A stretch of DNA of 60,482 bases, the filler included, from Sphacelaria rigidula (taxonomy: Eukaryota), in assembly GCA_964200075.2 (NCBI GenBank). It is 7 parts of 7 records of this genome, joined end to end, with 100 filler letters (N's around TTAATTAATTAA, not from the genome) between each part and the next. Parts side by side here need not be neighbours in the genome. Positions count along the whole stretch, not along the records: positions 1 to 8,555 come from CAXNAA020010791.1; 6 more parts are not named here. One strand, written 5' to 3'. The notes beneath the pieces are model-generated. The model was not told the DNA's origin, made no database searches, and was given only the letters and a program-made list of their open reading frames with translations. Positions 1,721 to 58,400 of the stretch are shown here, in pieces. How positions within the stretch are numbered: the stretch's first letter is position 1; each line of letters opens with the position of its first letter. Made by a program: the position numbers and the translations under genes.

Positions 1721-4700
1721 TCAAACTGGATCCAACCAACCACCCTCTTCCGCTATCCCTCGTGGAGTGTGACTTCCCCCTCGACGAGCCGTATCGCGGG
1801 TGGGCGGAGATGCCGCCCGCACCACAACACTACCCGCCGCGGCATACGCCGCACCAGCCTCGTCCGGCGCAGAAAACCGCCGGACAAACGAAGACGCGGA
1901 ACTCGCGCGCCCCCCACCCGCCCCCGTTACCCCTCCACCCCCGCCCGTTACTCCTCCTCCCCCCCCACCCGTTACTCCCCCGCCGTCCCCACCGCCGCCT
2001 GATGATGCGATAGCTACGACCGAGCCTTCCCCTCCGGACAGCTCATCACCGCTTGCGTGTTCGGCCCCGGAGGCGATACCGCCGCCACCGCCGCCACTCA
2101 CCAAACTCCCGCCGCTTCTTACCGTGACGATCCGACTCAACCTCAACACTTGCTGGATGGCGTGACGACACACAGGACACACGGAGGGAGGAGTGACAGC
2201 CAGGTGCTGCGCGCAGGCGTAGCAAATCCCGCTGTGTCCACACTCCATCAACACAGCGTCAGCTGGCCTTGTGCAGCAAATATAGCACGTCGCGGACGGC
2301 TGAGACGGGGTGCCCAACACCCCCGCTTCCATTTTCCTCGCCACAATATCCTCTTCACTCTCACACCCAGCCACCATTACCCCTTCCCCACCCTCTCGTA
2401 TGTCGTCATCATCTAACCCTGCTTCTGAAGACATACCTCCGTGCCAACTCAAAACCCGCGTCATGCCAGCACCTCCAGCCGTGCTCCCGCCATGCCTGCT
2501 TGCGGTGCCCAATCCACTGTGGGAGCTGTGACCGTGTCCACTGAAACCATGGCTACTCAAGCCGTGAATACTCATGTTGTGGTGGCTGTTACTGCTCAAG
2601 CCGTGGCGGCTGCTGCTGCCGCCTTGAAGCAGGAATGGCGGGAGATTCGTTGGCGTTGCCCCTTGCTCGCTGCCGAAGGCCAGCAGAATCTCCGGAGATG
2701 GCGTGGACCTCAAACTTGGATCAACGCCGCCGATGACGTCTCTCGGATCTTCCTCATCATCTCCGTCTATTGACAAACCCACCTGAACAGATATGCGCGG
2801 GGACACGCATTTTTGTACTTTAGATTGGGTGTACACACGAACCGTAAGTGAGCGCACAGCCTGCTCCTCTTCTCAACTCATCGCGGCAAACGATTAGTAG
2901 CGTTCATTTCGTTTGGTACACATGAACAATACTGTAATATTGAGAAAGGGGGGACAGATCGTGTGGAGCGCACCATGCGTCGGATGCGCTGGGTAACGCC
3001 ATAACCATCACGTCTTGCTCTGATTTTTCGCAGCTTGCCTTCTTAATTTCGCCGAGTGAGGCCCAGTTGTCATCCCTCTACGCAAGAGCACAAACAAAGG
3101 ACGCACTCGTATTTTCGAAGCGATCTCCGAAGATATCCTCACCGCTGCAGATCATAAATCGAAGTTCAGGCTCTACTTTCGCATTGATGAACACATAACC
3201 GCACACCAAAGTATACTCGGACAGACCGAAGAAACCTGCGGTTAGACTAACCTCATGGTGAGCATCATCGTCATCGCCATCAGCATCCGAGGCGTAGCTG
3301 CCGTAGCTGTTCAGGTCGTAACTGTCAGTCACGGAATGCGTCCCGGAATCCGCCTGTAACAGACCCCGATCATATCTCTCATTCTGAACCAACGGGTGTC
3401 GAGCAGAAGCAAGGTAAAAACAACGATAGAAACGGCAACAACGAAATTAACAGCGACAACGATTGCCTCGTGTTCAGAGCTACACTACGCGAGCACGACA
3501 TCTGTGGACTGCATGGGAGCAAAACATGCAACGCACCTGCTGCTAATCAGCACGCTATACTAACGGCACGTGTAGTCTCCACGAGATAAGGGCAAACGGC
3601 AAAGGTGGCGCTGGATCGAGAAATCGCCTACACGCCACGGACACCAGAAATGTGATGCCGCTCTGATATTTTCTCCCAGGGCTACAAGAGCCTCATCACT
3701 CAACAATATCTGGCGTGTTCTAAAAGCTCCGCTTTCAACCTTCACGCCGACATACGCATCGAGGTGCATGCAAATTGTTGTGTGAGTATGGTCGCCCCGG
3801 TGGCTCAGTTGGTAACCTCGAAACCTTCTGACGGTTGGGTCGTGGGTTCGAATCTCGGAGCGATCTGGGATTTTTTCTCACACAATGCTCAACAGTGGAG
3901 AGCGACCATGTCGTGGGTATACGAAATTCGACTGAATGGTCGACAAGGGAAGGAGACTGCTGGACTCCTCTCGCGATAAAAAATAAAGGCGAGCACCGCA
4001 GAATAAAGATGGAGTATTGAAAAAAAAAAAAAACGGGGCAGGCCTACCAACAGACCAACCCCGGCGGGGGGGGAGACAAAAAAAAAAAAGACGAGACCGG
4101 CGTCCAGAATAGATGGGACGACAACATATACACAACACACATACGCGTGTGCGTGTGTAATGCAACAAACGACAGGTATCCGATCTTAGCACATACCGTC
4201 ATTTAAGGACGAAGATATTCGCTTCGCTGGGTCGTCAGTATACATTTGCAATACATATCCGTGCGTACCTTGGAGGCAAGTCCATTTCTGCCGCCTTGTC
4301 TTGGAGACGCTTCCTCCTCAGACCCAGCTCTCTGCTGTCGCTCCGACGACATGGAAAATCGCCCTCGGACCTACTCGAACCGACAGACACCACGAACCCA
4401 TAGGGCAGCAACGTGGCGTGAACGTTGTGTACCTCTTCAAAATATTCTCCGAATCCCAAAACAAGAAACATAATGCAGGTGCACTACGAACCAACCGTAA
4501 CCATGGCATTGGACATGGTACGAAAAGAGTCTACAATATATACATTAAATAGATTATGGATAAATAGATAGGTCGGTATATATGGGGGTGGATGAGTCAG
4601 ATACACCGATACCGAAGATGACCATGAGGAACACCTGCGGGTGTTGAGTCTGTGCACCTCGAATATTCAATTCCTGCGGGGTGTTATTCAGGGAGTTTGT

Positions 4701-7700: not shown

Positions 7701-8270
7701 GGCAGAAACACAAGGATCATGGCGTACAGGGCTATTAACGGCGCCAGGATGGTCCTGGCCGGAAAATCTTCGTTCCCATCCAGCTCCAGCGTTAGAAAAA
7801 CCAAAAATAGCAAGGCGCAAAACGTCAAGCTTTGGCAGCAGCGAGAACAAAGACAGGAACGACAACGACAACGAGAAGGGAGGGGGCGTACTCATTTGTT
7901 GCTTGCCTTAGTCGTTTGACCATTGACCACGCATCCATTTCGAGACGAAGCACCAGGGGCGGGGGTATCCATAACCTTGCATGTTGTAGTCACAAGATCA
8001 TTCAGGGGTGGGGGGGGTTGGCGCAACAACAATCTCGAAGGAGTTGCGATAAACTCCGGGAGCATCTATGTTTGGCATCTGCACGACTCGGTGACAACAT
8101 CTAGGCACAATGGTGAGGAAACAGCAAAAACGCTCAGTGCGAGATAGTACGTCGAAATAGAGCGGAGAAGTAATGGAGGGGCTGCGGATACGACGGGGCA
8201 AGAGAGCTGCTGATTCTTCATCTTTTTCGTTATACTTCGAATTCCTCCCGTTCCTCCCGACGAGTCCATA
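1721..8270 (-). CDS. Partial (5'-incomplete) spliced gene for a transmembrane protein with a C-terminal RING-HC (C3HC4_3-type) finger, probable membrane E3 ubiquitin ligase; TM segment resembles TMEM185/Fragile-X-F-associated family. Exons 8270-8151, 7829-7667, 6947-6693, 3353-3252, 2782-1721
   Basis: GT-AG junctions with compatible phases (2,0,0,0) give one frame: ...LLLRSIST|LTFCALLFLVFLTLELDGNEDFPARTILAPLIALYAMILVFLPVLLLITRHYVR|TMRTVEETFRQ...MSLQ|ADSGTH...AHHE|VGLSIDG...CYICCTRPADAVLMECGHSGICYACAQHLAVTPPSVCPVCRHAI...stop TGA at 1723-1721. Confidence 0.85.
3790..4160 (+). mobile_element. tRNA-derived SINE, copy 1 (in an intron of the RING gene)
   Basis: Head with Pol III A-box TGGCTCAGTTGG and B-box GGTTCGAATC, followed by a ~300-bp body shared with 32176-32552 and ending in a CA-rich tail. 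Confidence 0.8.
5371..5440 (+). repeat. Interspersed repeat containing degenerate TTAGGG-like units (also 23855-23930, 46414-46482, partial 31626-31680)
   Basis: Shared TGCA(T/C)CCCC..GCC.GAG.GTTCTCG block followed by GGGTTAG-like motifs in four contigs. Confidence 0.6.
7882..7954 (-). mobile_element. ~72-nt G-tract-associated short repeat, copy 1
   Basis: GGGGGCGTACTCATTTGTTGCTTGCCTTAGTCGTTTGACCATTGACCACGCATCCATTTCGAGACGAAGCACC; further copies at 14533-14595, 16682-16708 and 16772-16793 (partial), 47113-47185 (opposite strand, diverged), 48938-49008, 49051-49150, 52039-52103, 54965-55036, 56758-56782 and 57095-57140 (opposite strand, partial). Confidence 0.85.
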
Positions 8271-11899: not shown

Positions 11900-13290
11900 T
11901 CGTGACGTGCCAGAAGATCCGGCGCTGCAAATAGCAGAACCACGGCATCAATGTCAAATATCAGCTGGGAAGCTCGATCGTTTGAAACTGGTGCAAAGTG
12001 ACCGACATCTGTCAGTCAACCGCGAAAAAGTTGCAAAAAAACTAACCACGGGAGTACGCACACTATGTCGCGGTTGCCAACGCCGAAAGAACCGTCCACA
12101 ACCGGCCAGAATATGCCGATGGGACACGTTCCGGTAGGACGGCTATAAGAAAGAATGTCGGCAGACCTCATCAAATGCAAAACAACTTCGATGTCAAAAG
12201 CTGGGGTGCTCTGTAGATAGGTATTGTTCATAATGGACCACCTCACAGGGTATGCCTTGCTAATTCCGGTACCAAATAAACAAACCACGTCGATAGCCAA
12301 AACGTTTATCGATAGATTTTTACCACATTTGGCATCCCGGAAAAGCTGCGTTCAGATCAAAGAGTCGATTCGGAAACGAGCTAATATATGCACGGCAACA
12401 AGAGCTGGGTTTCAATGAAAGTCGCATGACACCGTTACTCCTGCAAGGTAATTCAAAGTCGGAACAAATCCACTCCACCATGCATGCAATGTTAGCTATG
12501 CATGTGTCAATTGGAAACGAAAATTGGACATTGATGCTTCCGTACATATAAATGGCGTACAACACATCCTATCACAATACAGTACAGGAGATACCATTTT
12601 CTTTTTGTTCGGAAGACAACCCGGATTACCAATCGACATCATACTCGGCATACCTGAGCAGAGCCAAGCCGCAACACCTGACGAATTTTCCAAAGAAACA
12701 CGGGAAAACCAACAGTTTGCATTTGACATTGCGAGACAAGCTCTACGAGAAAGAGCGAACAAGCAAGAAAACGGGAACAAAGTAAAAACGTTACCAGTGT
12801 TCAAACCCGGTCAAAAGGTACTCATGTACCGACCATACCAGGATTTAGAAGGACCGAACCCGCAACTACAATTACCATGGAGAGGACCTTTCATGATAGC
12901 CAAGAGACGATCGCTGGTTATATACAGAATCAAAGTAGGCGACCACTCTAAAGAAATGTCAGTACATCTCGCTCATTTGAAGGAATATCACCCGAGAGAA
13001 ACAGCGCCAGCGCCAGACTTTGACAAGTGGAGCAAGTTGTTCCTATGCAGACGGATACCTCTACCGGAGATGGACCAAACAGACGAAACATTGCCTATAG
13101 TAGAACGTTACACGTCAAAAATGTGATAGGTCACGCTCCAGGCCCAGGTCGGAGAAGTCTGCATAACTATAAATATCGATTGAGATTTAAAAGCTACGGC
13201 CCAGCAGCTGACCTAGCCTATCGAGCTGACGAAACTCCACAAGGTAGACATCTCATCGATATATACCGTCATGACAATGGGTTAACAGAG
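11900..13290 (+). pseudogene. Gypsy integrase plus chromodomain, with frameshifts and stops
   Basis: CRGCQRRK (HHCC end), MSADL...IMDHLTGYA, FGIPEKLRSDQ, MAYNTSYH, LFGRQP, QLPWRGPF (GPY/F motif), VHLAHLKEY, then YKYRLRFKSYGPAADL chromodomain-like. Confidence 0.88.
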
Positions 13291-14120: not shown

Positions 14121-14511
14121 GAAAGACCAAAATTAAATGGTTTGTAATACATGCACTCTTACTGACCACAGGTAACTAAAATTTCCTGGGGGTGTTTACT
14201 CAATGCCACATTATAGAGAAGGGCTACCTTTGCGAATAGCGGTGGCGTGACTCAATCAATGATTGTCACTCAAAGCCGTTTCCACGATTACATCATCAGC
14301 GAAGCTGATGATCGCCTCGTCCCACCAACAACAGTTCTGATGAGCTTGAGGCGCATAAGGGGGGGGGGGGAAGGGGTGGAGGACTCCTCTTCGTAGTAAC
14401 ATATCAGAGACTGATGACACACATGTATGAAGAACCAGCGTATGCAGGTACAAGGTAGGAACGGTCCGAAAGGACCAGATTACCGAGGACCCTGCAGTGC
14501 CAACGATACCA

Positions 14512-14842
14512 GAGTCATCCTACGATAGGGGGCGTACTCATTTGTTGCTTTCCTTAGTCATTTGACCATTGACCACGCATCCCTTTCGAGACGGATCATC
14601 CTACGATAGGGGGGGGGTATTTTGGGCCACTTCTTGCACGAAATTCCGAGGCAAATCGTCGTTGAAAGCAGCAACGGTTGTTCAAACGAGCTTGTTGTGG
14701 ATTCATAACGCCCATCCATACTGCCTGATACCGTTTGAAACCAAATACAAGCGCAACGCAAGTGTGGCAAGTTGTCTGACACACCTATGAGCCTCTTTTT
14801 TCGTCCAACCAAACACCCCCCCCCCCTATCGTAGGATGACTC
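14512..14842. mobile_element. MITE nested in the 3' LTR
   Basis: TIR GAGTCATCCTACGATAGGGGG ... CCCCCTATCGTAGGATGACTC; the whole insert 14514-15099 is flanked by CGATAC(C/T)AGA duplicated at 14504 and 15100. Confidence 0.75.
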
Positions 14843-16681: not shown

Positions 16682-17040
16682 GGGGGGGGGGGGGCGTACT
16701 CATTTGTCTTGCGCATCCAAGTAATTCCCTTAGCTGCTGTAATATGCACTGTTCCCAACTCCTTCACCAAAAGGGGGGACGTACTCATTTGTTTCGAGCA
16801 TCCAAGTAATTCCCCTGGCTGCTGTCATCTGTACTGTTCCCAACTCCTTCACCAACTTCACTGCATCCAAGTATTCTCTGAGCTGTTGCAATCTGTACTG
16901 TTCCCAACTTGTTCACTAATTTTATTGCATCCAAATATTCTTTTATCTGCTGCCATTTGCACCGTATCCGCATCAAAATATTATTTTAGCTGCTGCCAGC
17001 TGCACTGTTTCCAATTTCTTCGGCAACTTCACCCCTTGCT
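16682..17040 (+). repeat. Minisatellite of about five units (core ~57 bp)
   Basis: CATCCAAGTAATTCCCT..GCTGCTGT.AT.TG.ACTGTTCCCAACTCCTTCACCAA units with progressive decay. Confidence 0.8.
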
Positions 17041-17559
17041 CTGCCATGTCTAATGCTAGTATCAGGTCATCAAAGACTACCTCGAGTAGAGAGGGTGTAA
17101 CGTATATCCTGGTGCGAGTAACGTACATCCTGGTGCGACTCGTTGCAAAATAATAGGGTTGCCAGAAAAATGAGAACGTATTTTGAAATGAGAATCAACC
17201 GCTCCCCGGGNNNNNNNNNNNNNNNNNNNNNNNNNNNNNNNNNNNNNNNNNNNNTTAATTAATTAANNNNNNNNNNNNNNNNNNNNNNNNNNNNNNNNNN
17301 NNNNNNNNNNTCGTTGCTCTACTCTGCTGACTGCCGTCTGCAGAGACGTCGCGCACCGTATCAATATGTAAGTACCCAATTTCGGAACAGCTATGGAAGC
17401 AAAACAGTTAGGGGCGCGAATCGGGGGGGGGGTGTTAGCCCCCGAATTATGCCAGGCTGTTCGAACGGAATTTTATCGATCATATACAACTCATCCTCGT
17501 TTCTTTTCTTCCATGTGGATACACTTGATCAAACACATCATTAGAACGAGCAAATCGTG

Positions 17560-25965: not shown

Positions 25966-26932
25966 TGCGACCTTTGATCTTGGCACTTGAACAGTAAGGG
26001 TTGGCTTGATGGAGCTTGGGGCGGGGTCGAGTGTGGGCAACCAGTCTTGGACGAAGCGCTGTACTGCGCGGCGAGGCCAAGGACGGGAGGAGCAGATCCG
26101 AACGAGGTGGTGAACGGGCTGTCTTCGGTGGCTGGGGCGATGAACTCCAAATCCAGAGAGGGTGACTAGTTCCGGAGAACTGTTGGGAGGTTCTGAACTG
26201 CCGTCGTTGCTTGTGTCGTGTAGAGTTGTAACAATGCTATAAAATGAGGTTCATCAATTAAATGAAGTTCGAGACCAAAACAATTATTTCTCCACACTTT
26301 CAGCGATGGTGCCCAATGACTTTCTTGTCGACCTAATGCCCCTCGATCGCGTAGATACTTCTTCAGCGCATTTTACCGACTCTGCGAGCTTACAGCGCTG
26401 TCCGAAACCGCCATTTCTACTTATTTTTTAGGGGGGTGATATCAGGGAAAACAGCGGTTTCGGTCAGCGCTGTAAGCTCACAGAGTCGGTAAAATGCGTC
26501 CAAAAAGTATCTACGCGATCGAGAGGTATTAGGCCGACAAGAAAGTCATTGGGCACCATCGCTGAAAGTGTGGAGAAAGTACTGTTTTGGGCTCGAACCA
26601 CATTCAATTGATGAACCTCATTTTATAGAATTGTCTGTTTTGTGCTTTGTGCTGCCTTTTTACGGCACAAAACACAACCCTACACTACCCAGAAAATGAC
26701 AGCAGAACCTCCCAACAGTTCTCCGGAAGCAGTCACTCTCGCGGAATTTGGGGTGCATCGCCCCAGCCATCGAAGAGGCCCCGTTCACCACCTCGTTGGG
26801 ATACGCTCCTTGCATCCTTTGCCTAGGCACGAAGCACGGCGTTTCGTTGAGTAATGATTACCCACAACCCGCCCCCGCCACAAGCTGCATCAAGCCGACC
26901 CTGACTTTCGAAGTTCCCAAAACGAAGGTCGC
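25966..26932. repeat. Long foldback inverted repeat (arms about 25966-26411 and 26454-26932)
   Basis: e.g. TTTCTCCACACTTTCAGCGATGGTGCCCAATGACTTTCTTGTCG vs CGACAAGAAAGTCATTGGGCACCATCGCTGAAAGTGTGGAGAAA; TTCCGGAGAACTGTTGGGAGGTTCTG vs CAGAACCTCCCAACAGTTCTCCGGAA. Confidence 0.9.
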
Positions 26933-27510
26933 GATATCGCCAGGCGTGTCGACGGGCATCAATTTCGCCGTGGCGGACATATCTTGGGCAGATGTTTTCC
27001 GTGTTGAACTTGCGTCCGCTCTTTTGGTGTTCGCCAAGTGACGCCCTTCACGGTCTACGATCGCCAGAGCTATCATGAGTTGTAGGCTGCGTGTGGGTTT
27101 GGTTGAACCCGAGTGTTTTGCTGAAGTGGTGGTTGAGCCGTCCTTCGATGTATCTCATTTTCTTGTTGGTAACAACGCGGCGTATGTCCTCTGTACTCAA
27201 CAATTTGCTGCTGCAGCCTTTGCGCCGACGAGTGTTATCGGGCAATCTTCCCTTCTTCGTCCTTCGACACGTTTGAGTGCTATATGATCGCTTATCTCGG
27301 TCTCCTACTGGAGGTTCACGTACAGCTTTTGCTTCTGCAGCCAACTACAACTGTCCCATCGTTATGATCAGTCAATAAAATATGCCGTTTTGCCGCACGT
27401 CCCATCGCCACAGGTTACACCAGTTGTACAGAAGAGAGTATTGTGAGAATATATGGTATTAAACATCGTGTCGACTTGACTATTTTGAAAACAATTGTCT
27501 GAAAATGCAG

Positions 27511-27587
27511 AGAATGCTGCGAGGGCTATAATTGGAGGCGGAGGGATACACCAGGAATATCTACATCAGCAAGAAACGCTGCGCGAC

Positions 27588-27637
<50 letters not shown>

Positions 27638-29507
27638 ACATCATCAACGGCAACAAGATCAAGAACAACAACAAGAACGTCAACAAGATCAAGAAAAAGA
27701 TCAAGAACAAGAAGAAAAAGAAGAGGAAGCGGAAGTAGAAGCAAGAGCAGAAGCAGAAGCAGAAGCAGAGGCAGAAAAGGAAGCAGGAGCAGGAGCAAGA
27801 GCAAAAGCAGAAGCAGAAGCAGAAGCAGAAGCAGAAGCAGAAGCAGAAGCAGAAGCAGGAGCAGGAGCAGAAGAAGAAAAGGAAGCAGGAGCAGGAGCAG
27901 AAGCAGCAGCAGAAGAAGAAGCAGGAGCAGCAGAAGAAGAAGAAGGAGGAAAAGGAGGAGGAGGAGAACAAGAAGAAGAAGAAGAAGAAGAAGAAGAAGA
28001 AGAACATGTTCAGCAGCGCGCCGCTACGCAAACACCGGCCTTACCTACCCTCGCTGCCAACGGAAGTGGCGGCAACAAAACTACCGGCAACGTCAAATTT
28101 ATGCCTCCACCCGGACTTCCACCCGCCAGGGATACCAGTGCCCCTGTGCAGCCGACTCCGGTGGGACTCGGCGGCGTCAGCAGGGAGACGGGTTATGAAA
28201 GACGGGCGCCAAGCGACAAGGCAGCGTCTGCTGCGTCACCGTCGCCGCCGCCTCCGTTAGCCAGCATCGAGGAGTTGCTCGTGTCGGTGGGGTACTTGTC
28301 GCTGCTGCCCAACTTCCTTGAGCAGGAGTTCGATGTTGAGTCTATCGCGCTCATGACGGACAAAGATTTCGAGGAGATTCGGGTGCGTGTTGTGGGGTAG
28401 GCGGGGGGGTGTTTGTTTGCTTTTCGACTACCCGCAGTCGAGTCGCTATACGTGGGTACGCAGAGTTTTGTTCACAACGTCCATGTGGGCTATCGTATGC
28501 CGATGTTTTTGCGACTACCGAGCTAGGGAGATTGCGCTACCTCCGGGAGACTTGATGTAACCTCCCGAGAAGATTGCAGCGCGCTTTTTCGACCTTCCTC
28601 AACGACCAGTTTGACTTTGGGACAAATCCGCGACTCGACAAAATATTCCACCACAGTGTATCAACATAGGAAATAGCCCCCCCCCCTCTCCGTCCTGATA
28701 GATTTGGAAACAGCTCGTTGATGGCTTCCTGTCATACTCGGCTTATAATGTACAACATCTACGGAGCAACCATTTTGTGCAAGACCCATCACTTATCTCA
28801 CCCCCCCTCCCCCCCCAAATTAACATATATACATGATGTATTACCACAGGTAGCCAAGGGTCCCCAGTTGAAGATTCAGCGTGCGTGTCGCGAGGCGGGG
28901 CTGTTGTCACACGAAAATACCCCCGCCGGCTACCCCGGATTGGCGTGGTCCCCCGCTGGCCCTACTAACTAGGGCACTTTGTCCAGTGACGGTGGTGAGG
29001 ACGCTAAAGGCGCCAAGGCGACTTGGGCGAGTACGAACGCCCCTGCCATCGATTGCCACGTATGCTTCGAGAGGCCGACCGAGGTGAGAGAGAGAGAAAA
29101 TCTGACTCGCAGTTCTTCTTCAAGGGAACTATATATATCCATTAGGTCTCCTCTCTATGTCATGATATCGCCGACATCCGGGTACACGTATCGGTCCAGC
29201 GAGAAGGCTTTCATTTTTTCTTAGTCATGGGAGAGCACACCAACAACGCCATTTCATATTCTTTCAAAGAACGGTTTGTCAGAGGATCCAACGCGCGACT
29301 ATCGCCATTCGTTTCTTTTGTGTGTGTGTGCGCGGGGAATTCGGCGAACTATGTCCAACCTGCTTTTTGTTGCGTGTATGAAATCAGGTGACGTTCGTGA
29401 AATGTGGACACAAGATTTGCTGCGAGAGGTGCGGAAAGAAGCGGGAAGGCAGACCATGCCCCATCTGCCGCAGGGTTATCCACTCTGTTGTCAACTTTTA
29501 TCAATAG
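27511..29507 (+). CDS. Partial spliced gene: polyQ and Glu-Ala low-complexity region, SAM domain, C-terminal RING-HC; in-frame TAG at 28970-28972 (pseudogene, error or readthrough). Exons 27511-28382, 28850-29083, 29388-29507
   Basis: SAM: LASIEELLVSVGYLSLLPNFLEQEFDVESIALMTDKDFEEIR|VAKGPQLKIQRAC; RING: CHVCFERPTE|VTFVKCGHKICCERCGKKREGRPCPICRRVI; both introns GT-AG phase 0. Confidence 0.85.
27591..28004 (+). repeat. Coding microsatellites (CAG)n, (GAAGCA)n, (GAA)n
   Basis: Direct read; encode polyQ, (EA)n and polyE. Confidence 0.95.
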
Positions 29508-39957: not shown

Positions 39958-40407
39958 TAAAACACGGGATCTTACAAATTGGGGATGGATCTTTTATTGG
40001 GGATGAGAAACCCGGAGGATTTAAAATTTCGTACCCACACCAAATCTTCGAAATATGATTATATTTTTTCACCGATCGATAGCTATTGACAACTGCTACA
40101 CGCCATTCAAATTTGGATGTCGATCACCGAAATGTTGGGGTCCTAGGTGAAAAACCAATTTCGGAACCATTTTGGCGTCCGTTCGGACACCCGGAATTCC
40201 CCACAAATAGTTTTTCACCTAGGAGTCCAGCATTTCGGTGATCGAAATCCAAATTTATATGGGGTGTAGCAGTTGTCACCAGCTATCAGTAGATGAAGAA
40301 ATGGAATCATATTTCGAAGATTCGGTGTGGATACGAAGATCTTAATCCTCCGGGTTTCTCATCCCCAATAAAAGATCCATCCCCAGTTTATAAGATCCCG
40401 TGTTTTA
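39958..40407. mobile_element. 450-bp palindromic (foldback) MITE, copy 1
   Basis: TAAAACACGGGATCTTA.AAA.TGGGGATGGATCTTTTATTGGGGATGAGAAACCCGGAGGAT with its reverse complement at the other end; arms ~210 bp. Confidence 0.9.
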
Positions 40408-44099: not shown

Positions 44100-44371
44100 G
44101 CCCATACTACGACCAATACTTGGAGTTGGACCGTGAAATTTGGTATGGACAACGAAAAGGGAATAATGAACAAAATTACCAGTGCACACAAGGTATTTTT
44201 TTTGTTTTTTCATGAGTTAAGGGCAATAATCAGCTTTCAGATATCGGTAAAACATCCCTCACCCATGGAAAAAAAAAACTCAAGTGCACTGGTATTTTTT
44301 TTTGTTATGCCCTATTCATTGTCCATACCACATTTCAGGGTCCAACTCTAAATATTGGCCGTATAATGGGC
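44100..44371. mobile_element. ~270-bp MITE with long imperfect TIRs (related segment 40436-40625)
   Basis: GCCCATACTACGACCAATA.TT.GAGTTGGACC.TGAAAT.TGGTATGGACAA vs TTGTCCATACCACATTTCAGGGTCCAACTCTAAATATTGGCCGTATAATGGGC. Confidence 0.75.
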
Positions 44372-45048: not shown

Positions 45049-48000
45049 ATCGAAGAAGCTGCTGGAGCTGAGGAGCATACTGAAGCTCCCGGAGATAAAG
45101 GCGCAGATTGCGGAGGGAGATATATCCGTGGAGGATTTAGAAAGCGTTTGGTTGGAGGCCTGCACCGTAAAAGTGAGAGAATGTACTAGTCAAACTCAAC
45201 TTGTGTGTAGTGTTCGTTCACGTCGTGAATACGTTCCATAGGGTGGTGCGTTGAGTACAATCGTTTTAGTGTTTTCATCGGATGTAAGGAGGGCGAGTTC
45301 CTGACGTTCCTGACGTTCCTGTGGTTCTCCAGCGGTTCCCTAAATAGCTAACTAAGAGTTTCATCCCCGTGTACAACAGCTTGCTACAGTAGCTGACCTG
45401 CTTCCCAGTAGAGATGTTTTTTTTTGCTCTTTCATGATCAATCACAACCTGACCTATGGATTACGTTGTCAAGAAGTGTACTGCGTACGGTATGGAATCT
45501 AGTGCCTAATGCAATCTACAATCTACGCAGTAGACGACGCTGTACGCAATACACTTGTTAACAGTGTAATATAGTCGTTGTTCAGGGTGCAGAATTAACC
45601 TGTGTGTATCCTCCACACTACTACTGACTGTGCATGTACATCCACGAAAGCTTTACTCAACCACCGTAGCACCAACACAACGGTAGTACCAACGAGTGAT
45701 GAAAAGCGGCTCATGGGGGTGTACTGTATACCCGATGGTTCCTGAAATTGTCTTGCGCGGCAATAGAAGCACAGGGTTACCTCTCTCTTTGTTTTTCACA
45801 TTTTATTTCTCCCATTTCCGTGTGTTCTGTGTGTCCGTGTACGTGCGTGTGTGCATGTGTCTTTGCCAGTAGACCTTACGCATTTCTTGTAAAATGATCC
45901 TAGCTTAATTTCGGCCTGCCAACGCAAACTTTGCTTGGAAATTTTCATCGAGGATGAGAACGCGGAGGATTAAAATCTTCGTATCCACACCAAATCTTCG
46001 AAATATGGTTCCATTCCTTCACTTACTGGTAGCTATTGACAAATAGTACACGTCATGCTAATTTGGATTTCGATAACCGAAATGTCGGGATCCTAGGTGA
46101 AGAACCATTTCCGGGGAATGTCGGCGGTCTGATGGTACCGAAATGTTGGGGTCCTGGGTAAAGAACAATTTCGGGAAATTCAGGTGATGGGATCGGATTG
46201 CCGAAATTCCCCGAAATTGGTTTTTCACCCAGGACCCCGACATTTCGGTTATCGAAATCTAACTTTGTACGACATGTAGTACCTGTCAATAGCTACCAAT
46301 AGGTGAAGAATGGAACCATATTTCGAAGATTTAATGTGGATACGAACATTTTTATCTTCCGGGTTCTCATCCTCAATGAAAAGCTCGATCCTCAATTTCG
46401 ATGATCGGCTGTCCTTTGCATCCCCCTTGCCCGAGCGTTCTCGTACCTCCTAGATCGGGGCTAGTGTTGGGGTTAGCGTTGTTTCAACATCGTAAGTTTC
46501 CGAGAACGTCCTGTCAACCACTTTACCACAAACGCGTAAGGGCACGACTCGTTTTCGTCCCGCGATATTTCCGTGTGATATTATGTGTGTATGTTTTTTC
46601 TTGTTTCACAGGGCTCTTGCTCCCCTTTGGGAAGTGGCGAGTCGTGGGGCGTGCGCACTGGACTGTCGTTCGATGGATTCGTACACTTCCTTAGGTTGTG
46701 CGAAAAGCGCGTGTCCGCGCCAAAGGGTGAGCAAATGCGAAAATAATGGAAGAGTGGTGTCATGAACCATGATATAAAATTTTACTGGGAACGAACGTTC
46801 ATGATTCGAAATTGTATCGTGCGACTTCAGTGATGTCGATCAAGCACATCGAAAGGGTACCGTTGACTCCCTGTAATCCAAAGGGCGCTGCTGCTCCCTT
46901 TGTTCCCAAACGATATGTCTCCCTGGGTTTCAAAACGGGTACGGTTGCCTGAGTTCCGAAAGGGTACTATGCCCTTCGTTTCGAACGGGTGCAGCTCCCT
47001 ATGCACTTCGGGCCGAACAATCGTACAGGGTGCAACTCACCCTTCATGCGACTCGCCGAGCATATCAGGGCGCTTCGCGGTTGGTGAATGATTACGAGCC
47101 TGGTCTGGCTTTGTAGGGATGCGAGGTCAATGGTCGTATGACAACAGCATGCAAAATCATGAGTCCCCCCCTCCCCCTCCCCCCGTCCTCCCTTCCTCTT
47201 TCTCCGGAACCGTCTGCGTACTGTTGTTTCGTCGCCGACGTGTATGTATCATCTATGCCATGTTTTGATGTGCAAAAATCTACCCTAAGATCTGGAGGCG
47301 TCGGCCGTGGACACCCACGATGGCCACATTCTCGTGGCTGCCCGACACCGAATGATGGGCTTGGTGCGCGCCACGATTACTCTGCATCACCGCGGCGGGG
47401 TAGGCGGTCAACAGGCGAGTGGGTATAATTGTGGTCCGTCTGGTGGTTTTGGATGTGTGTGTGGGGGGGGGTCTGTCTTGTCTGTTAGCCTGCCTACCTA
47501 TCGTGCTGTTTGTTTGGTTTTCGGTTCGGTGGTGTCGTGTCCAGTCTATCGGCTCGGTGGTCAGTCCAAGGTTTCGTGGTCGGTCTATCGGGTTAATGGT
47601 CGGTCTGTTGGGCTCGTGGTTTTGTCTGGTGGTCTGGTGGTGTGTCGAACAGATATACTTTCTGTCGGTCTACCGGTTCGTCAGTTTATCTACCCACCGG
47701 TTTGTCAGTCTAACAGTCCATCAGTATCCTGCCTCTTCATCTGTCCGTCTGCCCCGTCTGCATTCCTCATCTCTTGCCACTCATTCCCTTCTCGCTTTGT
47801 CGCTTTGTCGTTAACTTCTCTCAGGCAGGGTCGTATCAAATTAATTTCGTTTCAAAAACGTGAGGTGGAATCGAATTCGCTTATTTCTGATTCGCCCACG
47901 CTACATATTTTTCAGATGGTTGAGAATATGGATGCCGTGGGCGTATCAGGTACAAGCAAATTCGATTCCACCGTACGTTTTCGAGTCGGAAACAATCTGA

Positions 48001-48871: not shown

Positions 48872-49876
48872 GTGAGAAACGGTACCGGCATGAGGGTATA
48901 CGGTTAAACAAAGGGGGTTTGAGGGGGAGGGGGGAGAGGGGGGGCTCATTTGTTGCTTGCCTCGGTCATTTGACCATTGACCACACACCCCTTGCGAGAC
49001 GGAGCACTGTTCCCACTCCTAATAGAGACGCCTCCAACATTTCGGTGCATGGGGGGGGTGAGATACTCATTTGTTGCTTGCCTTAGTCGTTTTGACCTAT
49101 GATGGTCGTTTTGACCGTTGACCACGCATTCCTTGCGAGACGGAGCACCGTCAAAGGGGGTGGGGGGGGGGGCGGACGTGTTCGGTATCTACACAGTATA
49201 TGGTAGTGATGACTGCTTGCTCAGTGGTAGTGCGTACTCTTCTCAAGAGTCAAATCCGGGCTTCGAAACTCCCTGTAACCATCGTACAGTAACTGTTTTT
49301 CATGTGCGATGGAAATTGCCGAAATATGCACCTTGAAAAACGATAGATATTTTCAGGCAAGATGGAGACACGTAATACTGCCACATATCGAATATGTGGA
49401 CAAGCTCTGATGAGACGGTGATGGTAACCTTGGAGAATATCCGAGGTGGACCAGTCTGAGCAGCTGAGCGGCCCCGGATTGTACTGTTGTCAAGAGTACA
49501 CACGGAGGAGGGGTTCTGGAGTCTGTAGTGGGGTTGCAGTGTGTTTTTTCTGTTTTTGTTGTTGTGGTTGGAATTTTGCAAGGGTCGGATGAGTTGATGA
49601 TTCGTCCGGAAATTACTTGATTTTAGTGTGACTGATTCGTACAGTACGAATCAATCCTTCGGCTTTGTTTTCTGCGTCGCAACCGAGGTACAATACGCAA
49701 AGCCTAGGCCCGTGTAGTGACGCAAAAATTGCGTGATGACCGTTTTGACAAGCGATCGACTTTTTTTTCTCTCTTTATAGCATCCGGGCCTGAAATACCG
49801 CGGAGTTGGTGATTCGAACGGGAGATGATTCGTTCGAACCGTGGAATTTTGTCAAGGTGTTATTTTGTTGAGTTTG

Positions 49877-51110: not shown

Positions 51111-52422
51111 GAACAGAAAAAAGTCGAACAGAACGACATACTTCGTCTGTCTCATGAGGCTGGACACTTGTGGTTGTACAAGCCCTTCACGATGTGATAT
51201 TTGATTTTCGATCTTTTTATTGCATTCGTCGGCGTTCTGTCAGCTAAAACAAACATGTTTTCTACAACGTGGGTGCTTGACCCATGCAGCCGCGCGGCCG
51301 AAAAAAATAGGTAGGTCGGTCCAATTGAGACGGCCATTTTTCGCTCGTTTCCCGGGAAAGCATGAGGGACCCGGGAACACGAAAAATTGCGGAAAATGGA
51401 CCAGAAAATGTGAAAATCGTGAGACCATCGTTGATTTCGGATATGTCCGTGATATTACCCTACGCACGCCCCATCGAACATTTTGTTGGCATGTAATAAT
51501 TGCTATCGCTCGACGTGGAAACGTCCAAAATCGGTCAATGATGGGGTATAAAGGAATCAAAAAGGGTTTAAATGGGGTATATTTCGGCGTAATTTTAGTG
51601 ATGAAAACAAGTTTCTTTTCTTCATCAGCTTCGTGTGCGCTTCACCTCTCTAACCAACCCAACCATGGGATGATCATCAACGTTGAAATACCCAAACGAT
51701 TAAACGCCCATAAGTGCCCAGACTCACGAGACTGAGGGAGTAGTAGACTAAACGTTAGGGTTGGGTCCTGGACCAGTGTCTACTGCCAGTATTCCTGTAC
51801 TGGCAGTACTACTTGTACTGGCTGAGAGNNNNNNNNNNNNNNNNNNNNNNNNNNNNNNNNNNNNNNNNNNNNTTAATTAATTAANNNNNNNNNNNNNNNN
51901 NNNNNNNNNNNNNNNNNNNNNNNNNNNNGACAGCCTACAATGAGTTGCTTTATTTTCTGGTATCGCCACTTCCAGAGACAGCCACGGCTTTTACACTGCC
52001 TCATGGGTGTCTAACCATGATTTGGGGGGGAGGGGAGTAGGCGTATTCATTCGTTGCTTGCTTAAGTCATTTGACCATTGACACCGCATCCCTTTCGAGA
52101 CGAGGTAGAGAGGCTAATGAAGTCGCAGAAAATCACTTGTACGATGAATGAAACTCCTTTTTTTTTAAGGCCCATAATGGCTCGCTGTACGGGTTGAAGT
52201 TGTTCCCTTCCTTGTGTCATCATCCATCCATCAGATATTGATTTTTCATACATGTCTATGGTGGCTGTTCAGGTGGTGTTTGGTGTTACAATACCGTGCA
52301 GTCATAATCCATGGAGGGGACTTTAGGTTCCTGAGCACACCCTGGTTTTTTCATTCATCAGTAACGTTACTTTATTTGGGCACACCTTCTACTGCGATTG
52401 GTAATTGGTTGAACAAATGCAG

Positions 52423-55400
52423 GCGTCGGAGCTCTTCGGGTCGCGGGCTTGAGGCCTGGTTTGTTTCGCCAAATCCCAACGTCGATGGGTCTTCCGGTGA
52501 AGAAGATGATGATGGTCAAGGGCCGGCTCGCCATGGTGGAGAGAGGAGTGGGTCCGACCTGGAAGAACGGGAGGAGCTGGGAGATGACGGATTGGTGAGG
52601 AAATGAGGGGGCTAATTTCGTTGCTGTTGATGAGGGAGAGGCAGGCAAGGACGAGGAGGGGAAGAGACGGGAGGCGAGGGGGGATATTTTGTTTGTTTGC
52701 TTCTGAAAAGTGTTGCCTTGTTATAGCTTGTCCGCACGTCCGTCCGTCTGCTTTTTTTTTTTGTGCAGATGTCGCACCAATGCTATCGAATGACGGTACC
52801 TCTTGTTTGTTTTTCTTTTTTCATCTTGATTTTTTACGCTCGTTTTTCGTGATTTTTCTTGTTTTTTGTACTGCATGTTTACCACAACTTGGATAATGCA
52901 CTCCTTGTCAATGGGTTGTCCAGGGTGTGAGATGTACATGAGACATGATACTTGTGGTACGATGTTTTGTGCTGAGTTATAAGCTTGTACAATAATAAGA
53001 GGAGCACTGTTGTGTTAGATTATTGTTTGAGTCCCCGGCGCGTGTTACATTTTTTTTTTTTGAAGATGCGATCCGTGGTAAGTTAGTACAGTATGGTTTG
53101 TGTTGGGTATTGCGATTTGTTTGTCAGCGGAGAATAACGATGTTGCTTGCGTTGATCATATTTCTTGCGTTGATTGCGTTTGTGAACCCTTTTGCTGTGC
53201 ATGTGTATATGTGTCTGTTTGTTTGTATTCTTGCGCTTGGAGTACCGTAAGTTGCTCTGTGATCGCACAGGGGTACGTTCTCACGACTCCTGTGCGAACA
53301 CCGCGCCCCCTGTGCGAGAATCGAAGTAAACAATTTGGTACTGCTTTTTCATCGCACACCCCTGTGCCATCTCAACGACACGTGCGATATTGCGTAAATA
53401 ATTTTGATGACACCAGGGTCTTTGAACGCACACCCTGTGCGATAACCCCGCCATGTGCGATACTGTGCAAATCTTCGCCGGTGTGAAGGAACAATCTGCA
53501 ACAGTACTGCCGTAGGAACAAGGTCTGAAGATACCTGACACATCGCAAGTACACACGGGCACACAGCCACAGCACGACAGCATCAAGCACACCGCACGAG
53601 CCTACGGTAGTTGTTGTGGTACAGGTATACCGTTGCACGAAATGTCGAAGAGAGAGACGAGGCTCATTGCAAGAAATATCGTTCGGTGCCAGTACGCGTT
53701 TGCTTTCGGGCTTCGTTCTTTCCGTCGGTGTTGGCGTTTAATGAAAGATTTCGGCTTTGGTGGTTTCATCCAAGGTGCACGACAAGAACTGGATTAAAAT
53801 AAGTTGAAAAAGAAAACCACTCCGTATGTTTCTTGTGTCTGCACTGCCACACCGCAGTGCGTAGTCCAGACAAGCCCTATGACGACCAGTGGAATAAATA
53901 CAAGAATCGTGGCAACTCAGGCTGTTCACCCCAAAGATCCATTCGCGCGCTCGCGTCCTCACTTGAGATCGCACCCCTGTGCGAAAAACCAATTAAATCA
54001 TCTCAAGCCGTGTTTTTGATCGCACAGGGGGGGCGTTCTCACGACCCCTGTGCGAAATTCACGCCCTGTGCGATCACAGAGCAACTTACGGTATGCTCTA
54101 TATGTTTCTTATTCGAAATGGTCCTCTTGAAGAAAAAATGTTTGGTTATGATTCGTAATCATCCGAAATACGTCTGCTGCGCGCGTTCTTCCTACACCAT
54201 GTTTTTTTCTTGAGCATTGGAATATGTTGAAAAAAAAATAATTCAAAAGAAAAAAATGCCTTTTTTTCACCAATGTCTTGCACCTGGTGAGAGCACAGCT
54301 AGCATAATGTCAATCAATCTGCAACGTGTTGCGACCAGGAAATATCGACGACCCCGTAAAACGGGTATTTACGTGACCGCAATAATCTGCCGAAGACTCA
54401 TCACGTTTTCACAACTGTCACTTACGCACACCCTGGAAAGTAGATTACACTGTCAAGACGTGTCCTGCGTACATTATGAAGTCCATTGTTTTTTGTAATA
54501 CACGCTATAGTCGATACTGAACGCAGTACAATTTTTGACGGTGTAATATTTTGTCATTATCCAGGGTGTGGATATTGTCAACACTCGGCGAAGAAGTTGA
54601 TCGGTCGTTGGATTGATTTGTCACGCGCTTGAAGTAGAGCTAAAGGAAGTATTTGCGTTCATATTTCGCTCGTCGTGCATCGTACACGGGCAGGGAGAGC
54701 GTCCAGAAGAACCACGTCTGCAAAACACCAATAGCTGGGGAGAGGTGCCAAACTCGAGCGACGAGGACCACCAGGCCGGGATCGCCGCCAGAAGGCCACG
54801 ACGAGTGAGTCGCACGGAGGACGGCGGCGGGGGGGCCGATAGCGATGGCGATGACGTGGCCTACCTGATGGAGCACAACGCTTGGCTTCTTGAGCAGCTC
54901 GAGGCAAAGGACGGTTCGTGCTCTAGGGTGGTTGGTAGTAGGAAGAAGGGAGTGAGAGAGGGGAGGGCGTCCTCATTTGTTGCTTTCCTTAGGCGTTTGA
55001 ACATTGACAAGGAATCCCTCGCGAGACGGAGCACTGGGGAGGAAGGGGGGGGTGCGAACGAATGATGAATCTTTAAGGTTGTGTTTTGGAGGGTGTTCCA
55101 GCTGAAATTTCGGTATTTACGTGCAAGTATGGAACAGGTTTTTTACCGGTAAATAGCCATCCAAACCATACCGGATTGATCGGAACAGGGGTTGATACCC
55201 TGCCGGGCCTTGGTGGAATGCTCGGCACACATTTCGGTATGGTTTAGGATGTTACCAAGAACCCCCCATTTCAGAGTATATATACATATATATATCCTAC
55301 AGAGCACAACCTTGGAAATATGGATTATTGCTATCGTGATTTAATTTTGCATTTTACTTCATTTTGTTTGAGAAACCAGAAAATCGTGCAGAGAAGGAAA

Positions 55401-58400
55401 AAAAAACACAAACAGTTACTTACTTTTTTGAAGCGGCGGACTCGCAGGTGTGTGCATGAAAAACAAAACAAAACGCAGCAATGCACGACAGAAAGCGTGT
55501 TCGGGTCATTGGAAAAAGAGCGCGAGAGCTGTCCAGCCACAATACGTTGGCAGGCAAACTTTGCCGTCTCCTTTGATGAAGAGCTCGAAACAAGAGGGAA
55601 TCCTGTGGATGTTACTTCAGCTTAGTGTGACTATCAATATTCGAATCTCCTGTGGGGTCGACAGTCCCAAGTGCTTCTCAACACTACGACATCGCGGGAT
55701 CATTATCCAGACCTTAGGAGAGCACAAACCCCAGCCACGGCCTTCATGGCTTTTGCGTGTCGAACGATGATCGATACAGGGTAGTGCGTGTTGTGGTTAC
55801 CTTTTTTTTTTTTTGGAGGAAGTATTAGTTGATGGAGTATGGCACAAAACAGCGCTATCAAATTTAAAGGGGAAGGGGGAAGGGGGAAGGGGGGGTGCAC
55901 TTTTCGATCAGCATTTTTGCATGAAAAAATAATGGCATTGGATTTTTTTGGTTTGATGGAAAAGTTCCTGGTTACATTTTTTTTTTTCCCCGCGAAATGA
56001 AAGCGCCAGGAAGCACTTTTCCTCTCTTTTTATCTTTTCATCTCCTGTTCCCATGATAAGTGGTATTTTCACTGTTTGACGGCTAGGGTGGGTCAGCCAG
56101 CTGTTTGATCTAGTGTCTTGACTCATCGGTTTATCGATTTATCGCAACTATGCTGATGCCTCAGGAATCCAGCCGTGGTCATTATCCACATGGTGGACGT
56201 ACCCGAGATGAAAGCAAAACGGAAACACTGGCCGAAGGAAAGTGAAGAAAACACACCCTGGACAAAATATTCTATTGTTGAAAAAATGTAGTGCGTACAG
56301 TATGGAATCCATTGTCTGCTTCAATAGGCGCAATAGTCGATACTGTACGCAGTACACTTTTTGACTGCGTTTTTTATTGTCCAGGGTATTGAAGCAAACA
56401 GCAAGGTGGAATAGACATAGAAGACACTAAAAAGAAGAAGCCCTCCCCACCCCCTCCCTAGGTAGCAATGGAGATTGGAGAGTAGAACCCATATGGTGGG
56501 GGATCGTAGGCTACACAAGGAGGAAAGGGATGTGTTTGCGGGGTGGGTGGGTGGGTGTGGGGAGTAAACGAATGTAGCATGGAATCGTTCGGTATAGTAA
56601 GACAGTACCGAGAAAACAATCGCTATGCTAGGAGATAGACGGTGGCCACAGATGGCGAAACAGGAAGGGGATGTGTGAGGGTTACTGTGTCATTAATGCA
56701 TGGGAAAAACGTGAGGAGCGCCCAATTGTTGGAGGTGTCTTCTTTAGGAGTAAGAACGGTGCTCCGTCTCGAAAGGGATGCAACAAGGTTTTCGTGAGAT
56801 TGAGGGTTGGGTGTGGGTTGAGAGTGGCTTTGATCATTCGCTTTAACTTGGCCAACTTTTCATTGCGTGTGTGCTTCTCGTCGTCTCATCACTGCCATGT
56901 GCTTACAGCCACACGTTGATTTCCTACTCAGGGGTTTCGAGGGCCTCAGTGGCGAGCTGCTACAGAGAGAATATTGGGCCTGGTAGAGGTGCATTTCGGA
57001 AATGAAACGGCTTATTCACTAATTGACCGCTTTTCACTCTCAGTCATACCTTCAACTCTCAATTTCACGAAAACGTTGTTATGCCTGATCTATAGTCGAA
57101 TGACTTGAGGTAATCAACAAATGAGTACGCCCCCCCCCCCCTCTCCCCTCGTAGAAACGTCCGGCCTTTGCAGCATGGGTTCAGATGGAAAAGGTCTTTT
57201 GCACAACAACACATGCATGCATACCCAATTGTGAAAACAAGGAGCCGTGGGGATGAAGTGCAGCTCATCCATTTCGGCCACAATGGCCGCTATTGGATCG
57301 GCATAATTTTCACTCAACAATGTATGGAAGGAAAAGACAGACGACCCGACCTCACCCATGCGGTCAATTTCGATGTTGCTGCTTGTCTTGCTCTTCTTGC
57401 TCTTCTTGCTTGTTGGCGTATATGTAGGGGAAGGCGTGCACATGTGTTGGTCTTGGGCGCTCACTCGCCGTAGAGTCAAATCAACGACTCAAAATCGCGC
57501 AGTCGCCGTGTGCAACGAACATGTGGCGTTGAAAAATTGTGTCTCGCGTGTCTTTTATTGGCGGGAGTGGGCGAGGACGAAGGCTGTTTTTTTTCTTCTT
57601 TGATTTCGTGTTACTATCCGCCTTTTTTCCCCTTTTTTTTCTCCTGCGTACGTATTTATCGTGTTTTTTTTATTCTTGTTTTGTGCGTGTTCAGGTCATG
57701 CCGCGTACTGTAGTCTAAAGCTTGGGAGACGCTACGATCCTGGTTGCTGTTGTACAAGAAATATGAAGCGTAATCGTTGACTTATCGACGTTCTCTTTTT
57801 CTTCTCTTCTTCCGTTTTGGATGCTCGGGAGACGATTTTTTGTGTAGATATATATCTTTCACGTTTTGTGTCCATAATTTTGTCTTGTTGATATTATTCT
57901 CATTGTTCTCCCCTGGTCCATAATGCCCCAAACAACCGAGAACGCATCATGAAAAAAAAAAATGGCAACCCATCCACATCCCAACAATCAATCTATTACC
58001 TTACCAAGAAAGTAATTATGACTGGTCACCGACGAAGCTGTTATTTTTTTTCACCCGACTTGCACTGCTGTCATCGGATGTATTTATTTTTATTTTATAG
58101 TGAGTACCAGTATGTTATTCACCTTGTAATGATGACAATTTGGTTGATTCGTGTGTTGTCCGTACATCGACTTGCATGCTGCACATTTCTCTCTCGACTA
58201 TCCGTTCGTTGAATTCATGTGCTCGCCCCTCCCCCCCCCCCTCCCTCCCTCCCCCTTCCGCGCGCGCGCCCCCTCCCTCGCCCACTGAGTATATTGAAAC
58301 ATTGCAGAGCTCATCGAGGCGCTCCGAGCACAGGTGGAGGAGCTCGAACTCGGCGGAGGCGTCGGCGGCCGCAGACGCTCGTCCATTCCCGGAGTCCTTT

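Follow-up and report, generated by a model that had tools for sequence, protein, structure and literature searches.

What is a repeat of about 72 nt that occurs thousands of times in a genome and nearly always ends in a run of G or C? The question is raised by a stretch of 60,482 nt from Sphacelaria rigidula (GCA_964200075.2), here called the window: seven contigs of ~8.6 kb with N spacers between them, from an assembly of 244 Mb in 27,214 contigs. A sequence-only reading had described there a high-copy element with a fixed (C)n end, and had proposed either a small structured RNA or a LINE 3' stem-loop retroposed into poly-G tracts. We find no separate small RNA: the repeat consists of LINE sequence, namely the coding 3' end of the element. 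Its orientation on the opposite strand is supported, and its abundance is confirmed. LINE-tail copies lie at the reported positions in four of the seven window contigs, with their G/C-tract ends kept, and the genome contains 5,038 exact matches to a 15-mer taken from the 3' end, compared with 3 for the reversed control. Copies depart from the column majority at 5-9% of positions; from this decay and the number of exact matches, we infer well over 10,000 copies.

The identity of the repeat emerges from what lies upstream of it. In the 30 best genome matches, the C-run end is constant and the opposite end either stops early or continues for hundreds of bases; the shortest copies extend 18 nt and the longest over 5 kb, reaching RT and APE motifs. 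The 72 nt themselves consist of the last ~21 codons of an ORF, the TGA stop, the 5 nt GTACG, and the C-run. The sequence-only reading had suggested looking upstream for an RT/endonuclease ORF, and a single EN-RT ORF is found continuous with the tail. Walking upstream, the RT motifs QGCTLSP and FADD are followed by the APE endonuclease and then by a 5' region of 62-63-bp tandem units, with a defined start common to three copies. There are 7-9 such units in L071, L075, L076, and L077. No second long ORF is present in three decayed 5' regions, and none survives among the copies seen. Near-full but decayed copies measure 5.7-6.2 kb, with insertions and deletions; no LINE copy that we saw is intact. 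Long terminal repeats are absent: in L071, L076, and L077, the sequence at the 3' end does not recur at the 5' end. The family thus combines the features of a LINE: an APE domain upstream of RT, a constant 3' end with variable 5' truncation, target-site duplications (TSDs) of variable length, and no LTRs.

Intact relatives extend this picture. The proteins P0002-P0004 are 67-71% identical to the Sphacelaria LINE and carry the same C-terminal peptide, with one residue different in P0004. Their EN-RT ORF spans 1,328-1,360 aa, Pfam detects Exo_endo_phos and RVT_1 in P0003 and P0004, and P0003 can be aligned along the copies of the Sphacelaria genome itself. At four metagenome loci, the DNA ends in TGA-GTACG-(C)n, one locus having one altered base. 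Ectocarpus proteins sit in the 90% cluster of P0004. Residues 1-165 of P0003 form an N-terminal extension before the endonuclease that is RRM-like by eye, as if an ORF1 domain had been fused; Pfam gives no match to these residues. More distant relatives (P0017, P0018, P0025, P0028, P0031, and P0046), some on contigs of 0.2-3 Mb, have an RT identity of 43-47% and a similar GCVVNG..AMA peptide right before the stop. This peptide may reflect an ancient, conserved RNA tail in translated form; DNA of the distant relatives was found in none of the viral or genome contigs searched. Nor did we see a sister LINE of the P0007 type in this genome, where the best match is 45% identical.

Other identities were considered and rejected. 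The near-complementary ends of the repeat could suggest a MITE or DNA transposon; this is excluded, as copies extend one-sidedly into the RT ORF. An HDV-like or hammerhead ribozyme is likewise rejected, there being no Rfam match and, by eye, no core motif of the consensus. The Rfam query that the sequence-only reading had put forward gave no match at gathering score across the window, and on four further loci (L083, L116, L127, and L134) only 3 sub-threshold, unrelated matches. There is no Pol III RNA head: the entire stub is LINE coding sequence.

The window illustrates the range of forms that the copies take. At 7882..7954 (minus strand) lies a 3' stub of 67 nt plus G and C5, made up of the last ORF codons (GASSRNGCVVNGQTTKASNK), TGA, GTACG, and the C-run, with G/C-rich flank on either side. 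A stub of 62 nt at 14528..14595 (minus strand) is flanked by 18-bp TSDs at 14515..14532, whose plus-strand end is G5, and at 14596..14613. Two further minus-strand stubs are found at 52037..52103 (~62 nt) and at 54962..55034 (66 nt, with C-runs on both sides). The copy at 48936..49048 (minus strand, ~110 nt) corresponds to P0003 residues 1328-1360 and stands head-to-tail with a stub bearing a ~20-nt internal duplication (49051..49151, minus strand). On the plus strand, 56478..56781 is a C-terminal piece of the ORF (P0003 residues 1250-1348, with stops within) that reaches into hairpin 1. Its 3' remainder, with C12, lies at 57081..57141 (plus strand), beyond an insert of ~300 bp with terminal inverted repeats (56782-57080); the repeats at 56758 and 57081 are therefore a single, interrupted copy. 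The window stretches 56478-56781 and 48949-49047 both match P0003 within residues 1250-1360. Thus, even within the window, copies continue into the LINE ORF. Finally, at 16682..16712 (minus strand) the extreme 3' end (~17-25 nt plus C13) is fused to internal LINE sequence in a tandem deletion derivative, whose second unit (16773..16859, minus strand) joins the 3' end to a piece from 864-938 nt upstream in the LINE.

Several neighboring features deserve mention in their own right. The tandem units of 16682-17110, each the last ~20 nt of the LINE plus a piece from ~900 nt upstream, have the appearance of a deletion derivative turned minisatellite. The ~300-bp insert at 56782-57080 has a MITE-like look, with terminal inverted repeats of ~23 bp and a 4-bp duplication, ATGC. 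Another MITE-like repeat of ~300 bp (14510-14840; also L008, L017, L019, L092, L162, and L173) is a repeated target of the LINE and of the partner family described below; its inverted ends bear G/C runs. Long, near-perfect inverted repeats with 100-200-bp arms occur at 26023-26875, 39958-40407, 44100-44371, and 46017-46308 and are probably MITEs or foldback elements. The window also holds a host exon with a C3HC4 RING-like motif (1721-2872, minus strand), a stop-free stretch that resembles by eye the end of a Gypsy-type integrase (12452-13126, plus strand), and a low-complexity Q/E/A-rich frame with, by eye, a SAM-like motif at its end (27489-28400, plus strand).

The LINE shares its tail with a non-autonomous partner. 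This family is ~570 nt when complete, non-coding, and represented by 4,471 exact 16-mer matches in the genome. Partner and LINE tails are 80-83% alike, and the C-run is common to both. In the window, the partner's 3' ~197 nt, with the common structured tail and C-run, occupies 47006..47174 (plus strand), so that the repeat at 47117-47171 is a member of this family; an internal piece lies at a contig start (51929..52018, minus strand). The 5' ends (L071, L076, and L077 for the LINE, L117 for the partner) have in common a motif of ~40 nt, 75-82% alike, which is possibly a promoter or a 5' RNA element. A hairpin inside a short stem can be drawn for this motif. In the partner (L117 and L074), the initial ~50 nt are a direct repeat of sequence close to the 3' end, which takes in most of hairpin 1.

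Does the tail fold? Since decay of the genomic copies is free of selection, structure is fairly tested by comparing master lineages. Between L081 and L082, third positions differ at 0/18 sites in the last 20 codons versus 63/180 upstream (p=0.001), and at 1/13 in the preceding 20 codons; synonymous conservation extends to about -120, past the 66-nt domain. Between the column majorities of LINE and partner, 1 of 42 paired positions differs versus 10 of 25 unpaired ones (p=1e-4; hand-counted). The sole paired difference, U-G to C-G, retains the pair, and both indels are unpaired. As the majority of these changes would be non-synonymous, the pattern tracks the fold and not the codons. The dominant variants of organism C also retain the fold: G-U becomes G-C at -46, and the loop GAAA becomes GCAA. 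Other observations weigh against the fold. Covariation, the check suggested for the fold, yielded no pair altered on both sides among 15 LINE tails. Single-sequence folds of LINE tails give z values from +1.1 to -1.9, mostly no better than shuffles; for the single partner tail folded, z is -2.55. In 9/33 partner copies, a C breaks one pair of hairpin 2. Overall, the two hairpins proposed from the sequence are supported by lineage differences that are confined to loops or keep pairs. We suggest that the LINE protein would recognize these hairpins, which overlap its own last codons, in a stringent form of 3' recognition.

Two details of the proposed structure fare less simply. The first loop had been called always GNRA, and in the window it is: GAAA at 7882, 14533, 52039, and 56758, GCAA at 48938 and 49051, and GCGA at 54965. 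Across 82 copies, however, 67 have GAAA, and of the 15 variants 6 keep GNRA and 9 break it, about the random expectation. The master loop states seen are GAAA and GCAA, the varying base being the third position of an Arg codon; the partner loop has 9 nt. The second detail is the closing stem, GUGCUC/GAGUAC (GTGCTC/GAGTAC in the DNA). It is predicted with a probability of 0.93-0.99 for the 66-nt stub, upstream sequence removed, but is out-competed when 90-130 nt of LINE RNA are included (at most 0.22). In the longer RNA of three intact-like copies, UGCUCC is predicted to pair instead with an upstream GGAGUA, at a probability of 0.4-0.9. This upstream hairpin, GGAGUA/UGCUCC, spans -78..-60 and is confined to the LINE; the partner does not have it.

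The apparent size of the repeat reflects a sharp hotspot of 5' truncation. We sampled 92 LINE copies (88 loci) in contig order, from 100 listed places among the 5,038 15-mer matches; eight of these places were left out, being near contig starts or already sampled. Contig ends or N interrupt 11 of the 92 LINE copies and 3 of the 30 in the partner sample, and these are omitted from the length counts. In 46 of the 81 uncut LINE copies, the 5' end lies 60-74 nt away from the 3' GTAC; in 25 of these it is at 65-66. The peak is one-sided, with 25 ends at 65-66, 2 at 67, and 19 at 59-64; the rate of 5' ends per nt is 0.089 at 59-67 versus 0.003-0.010 elsewhere. None of the 27 uncut partner copies ends at 58-85 (p=1e-8). 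Genome-wide counts of 15-mers, on which word decay also acts, fall from 5,038 at -15 to 4,080 at -65, 1,505 at -76, and 885 at -98. The hotspot is not restricted to Sphacelaria: among contigs from four runs, which represent four coded organisms and as many studies, the best-supported 24 of 342 loose ends include 16 on the 5' side, and 11 of these lie at -60..-68. An assembly artefact is excluded as the cause, given that TSDs adjoin many hotspot junctions, the partner has no peak, and the four other data sets agree; the fragmentation of the assembly nonetheless likely causes long copies to be under-counted. Also excluded, by 0 exact junction matches, is slippage between the two GAGTA words, which lie 71 nt apart.

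The hotspot coincides with the first base of the closing stem and with the top of the LINE-only upstream hairpin, and the leading explanations divide along these lines. Our best guess, offered tentatively and for this step alone, is a stall or cut at the upstream hairpin: the enzyme would fall off, or the cDNA be cut, at the hairpin of -78..-60, the 3' strand of which ends exactly at the hotspot. The partner favors this model, since it has the closing stem and lacks both the upstream hairpin and the hotspot. Reverse transcriptases would normally be expected to halt at a hairpin's base and not at its top, where the hotspot lies, which leaves the mechanism uncertain.

Alternatively, and less likely, the 66-nt stubs are a discrete, processed LINE RNA inserted whole as a short RNP. 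Processing would then proceed by 5'-to-3' decay or by an endonuclease, and would trim the RNA to a protein-held three-way junction closed by the stem GUGCUC/GAGUAC. The clustering of 5' ends at -65/-66, the first bases of that stem, with a one-sided tail, is what such trimming predicts, as is the high predicted probability of the stem once upstream sequence is removed; the recurrence of the pile-up in four other organisms is also in its favor. Yet the partner, with an identical closing stem, has no copy at the hotspot, and no Rfam ribozyme or other family matches.

It is improbable that the stubs are an independent, SINE-like family of ~70 nt with its own masters, derived once from the LINE tail. 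The sharp modal length and the existence of tandem stubs (L020) would suit such a family, as would T at the loop site -27, found in 11/46 short versus 2/36 long copies (p=0.03, uncorrected). Against it, the 46 short and 36 long copies agree in majority base at all columns with good coverage, evidence against a separate stub master and, together with the coding nature of the stretch, against the free-standing RNA of the sequence-only reading; the LINE branch of that reading stands. In addition, no internal promoter or RNA-gene head is seen in the stubs, and the hotspot is present in organisms with differing masters. Among the causes of the hotspot, we thus favor the stall or cut over processed RNA, and processed RNA over a separate SINE.

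How do the copies come to sit in G/C tracts? The (C)n end is fixed: 80 of 92 copies have at least 6 C among the 8 bases after GTAC+1, where the background is 0.9%. TSDs are scored in 26 of 81 copies versus 1-2 across five flank shuffles; they are ~10-20 bp long, and their first bases are the C-run. Many of the copies without a scorable TSD are pure C-runs or decayed sites. With the constant 3' end and the 5' truncation, these duplications uphold the earlier proposal of target-primed retroposition. Insertion into G/C tracts is upheld as well: in 55/81 copies, the 25 nt preceding the 5' junction contain CCCCC, versus a background of 2.4%, and the tract therefore predates the insertion. That the tracts are untargeted, being tails laid by the element or grown later by slippage, is very improbable: some 3' C-runs exceed the run in the upstream duplicate, and a few insertions (L092, L111, and L150) are at sites with only 1-2 C's, but the duplicated target includes the C-run, which also precedes the 5' junction far above background. 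Among 17 anchored cases, 2 hint that the C tail is RNA-borne, with 7 and 14 C's in the 3' run where the target had 3, and 3 point the other way, the C-run directly at the downstream anchor being much shorter.

We conclude with high confidence that the repeat is what 5' truncation leaves of a ~6-kb, single-ORF EN-RT LINE, its 3' end; the LINE is likely an RTE-X element related to Ectocarpus RTEX-1/-2 and likely inserts by target-primed reverse transcription from a nick in the G strand. The first nick would fall in the G strand of a G/C tract, and the freed G-strand end would prime on the C-rich end of the RNA, a G/C mirror of the T/A priming of L1. Mammalian L1 combines an APE nick, pairing of tail and primer, TSDs of ~10-20 bp, and 5' truncation with short microhomology. 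The Sphacelaria LINE resembles it in the proposed nick and pairing, in the duplications, and in the truncation; L1 differs in its A/T chemistry, its separate ORF1, and its relaxed 3' recognition. We know of no sharp truncation point so close to the 3' end in mammalian L1.

The sequence-only reading did not recognize the repeat as a known family, and here it was mistaken: a (C)n LINE with C-rich TSDs and a tail-sharing partner has already been curated in Ectocarpus (PMC12477816). In supplementary file 1 of that paper, the entry for RTEX-1_Ec32 (5,867 bp) reads "single EN-RT ORF; (C)n 3'", its TSDs being given as "C-rich"; that for RTEX-2_Ec32 reads "(C)n termini/TSD". Compared by annotation, the Sphacelaria LINE agrees with both in having one EN-RT ORF, a 3' end of (C)n, C-rich TSDs, thousands of copies, and frequent 5' truncation. 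The Ectocarpus elements measure 5.5-5.9 kb, and the decayed Sphacelaria copies, with their insertions and deletions, 5.7-6.2 kb; the Sphacelaria copies differ in being old (5-9% decay), with none seen intact. The entry for RTEX-N1_Ec32 gives a length of 607 bp, an 83% resemblance of its 60-bp 3' end to RTEX-1/-2, and a weak likeness at the 5' end (PMC12477816). Its counterpart, compared by description only, is the partner at 47006-47174 and not the 72-nt stubs: ~570 nt against ~600 bp, non-coding, a 3' end 80-83% LINE-like against 83%, a weak 5' likeness to the LINE, tandem copies, and C-rich sites. On the basis of this match of features and of the Ectocarpus proteins in the P0004 cluster, the LINE likely belongs with RTEX-1/-2 in RTE-X, the clade name being that of the Ectocarpus annotation; RTEX is placed in the RTE superfamily (PMC11203168). 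The main-text passages and supplementary rows of PMC12477816 that we consulted do not describe the tail structure, the ORF overlap, or the truncation hotspot, and the words "hairpin", "stem", and "C-rich" are absent from its main text.

A structured 3' tail common to a LINE and its partner has precedents. Stringent recognition of a 3' stem-loop by the LINE protein is described for LINE/SINE pairs such as UnaL2 and SART1 (PMC3747384), and the Sphacelaria pair is similar in that its common tail would be recognized by the LINE protein. In the described pairs, the tail sits within a 3' UTR and terminates in poly(A) or short tandem repeats; in Sphacelaria it is coding sequence and terminates in (C)n. 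For RTEX of green algae, the termini given are (CA)n, (CAA)n, and comparable repeats (PMC3747384). Searching titles and abstract openings, with Repbase, Dfam, and most subscription papers outside the scope, we found neither poly-C priming nor a truncation hotspot at the fold of a LINE 3' end described in any paper.

The repeat family is, in itself, ordinary: a LINE of this kind is already catalogued in Ectocarpus. Two features merit follow-up: a tail that is both coding and structured, and a truncation point that is sharp and lineage-wide. Priming of a C tail on a G tract, which we found elsewhere only as notes in a supplementary table, is here quantified, and the system provides a natural test of whether tail-primer pairing and endonuclease preference co-evolve. 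More than half of insertions have their 5' end in a window of 9 nt, where an RNA structure is predicted, and the partner escapes this; the two families together form a natural experiment on why LINEs truncate at the 5' end, a long-open question. A bolder and, in our view, unlikely model treats the three-way junction as a switch and a nuclease block: cutting or shielding at -66 would release an RNP of ~70 nt, to be inserted whole into G tracts by C:G priming. If true, the LINE would mass-produce a precise, SINE-like RNA from its own coding end, in several algal species.
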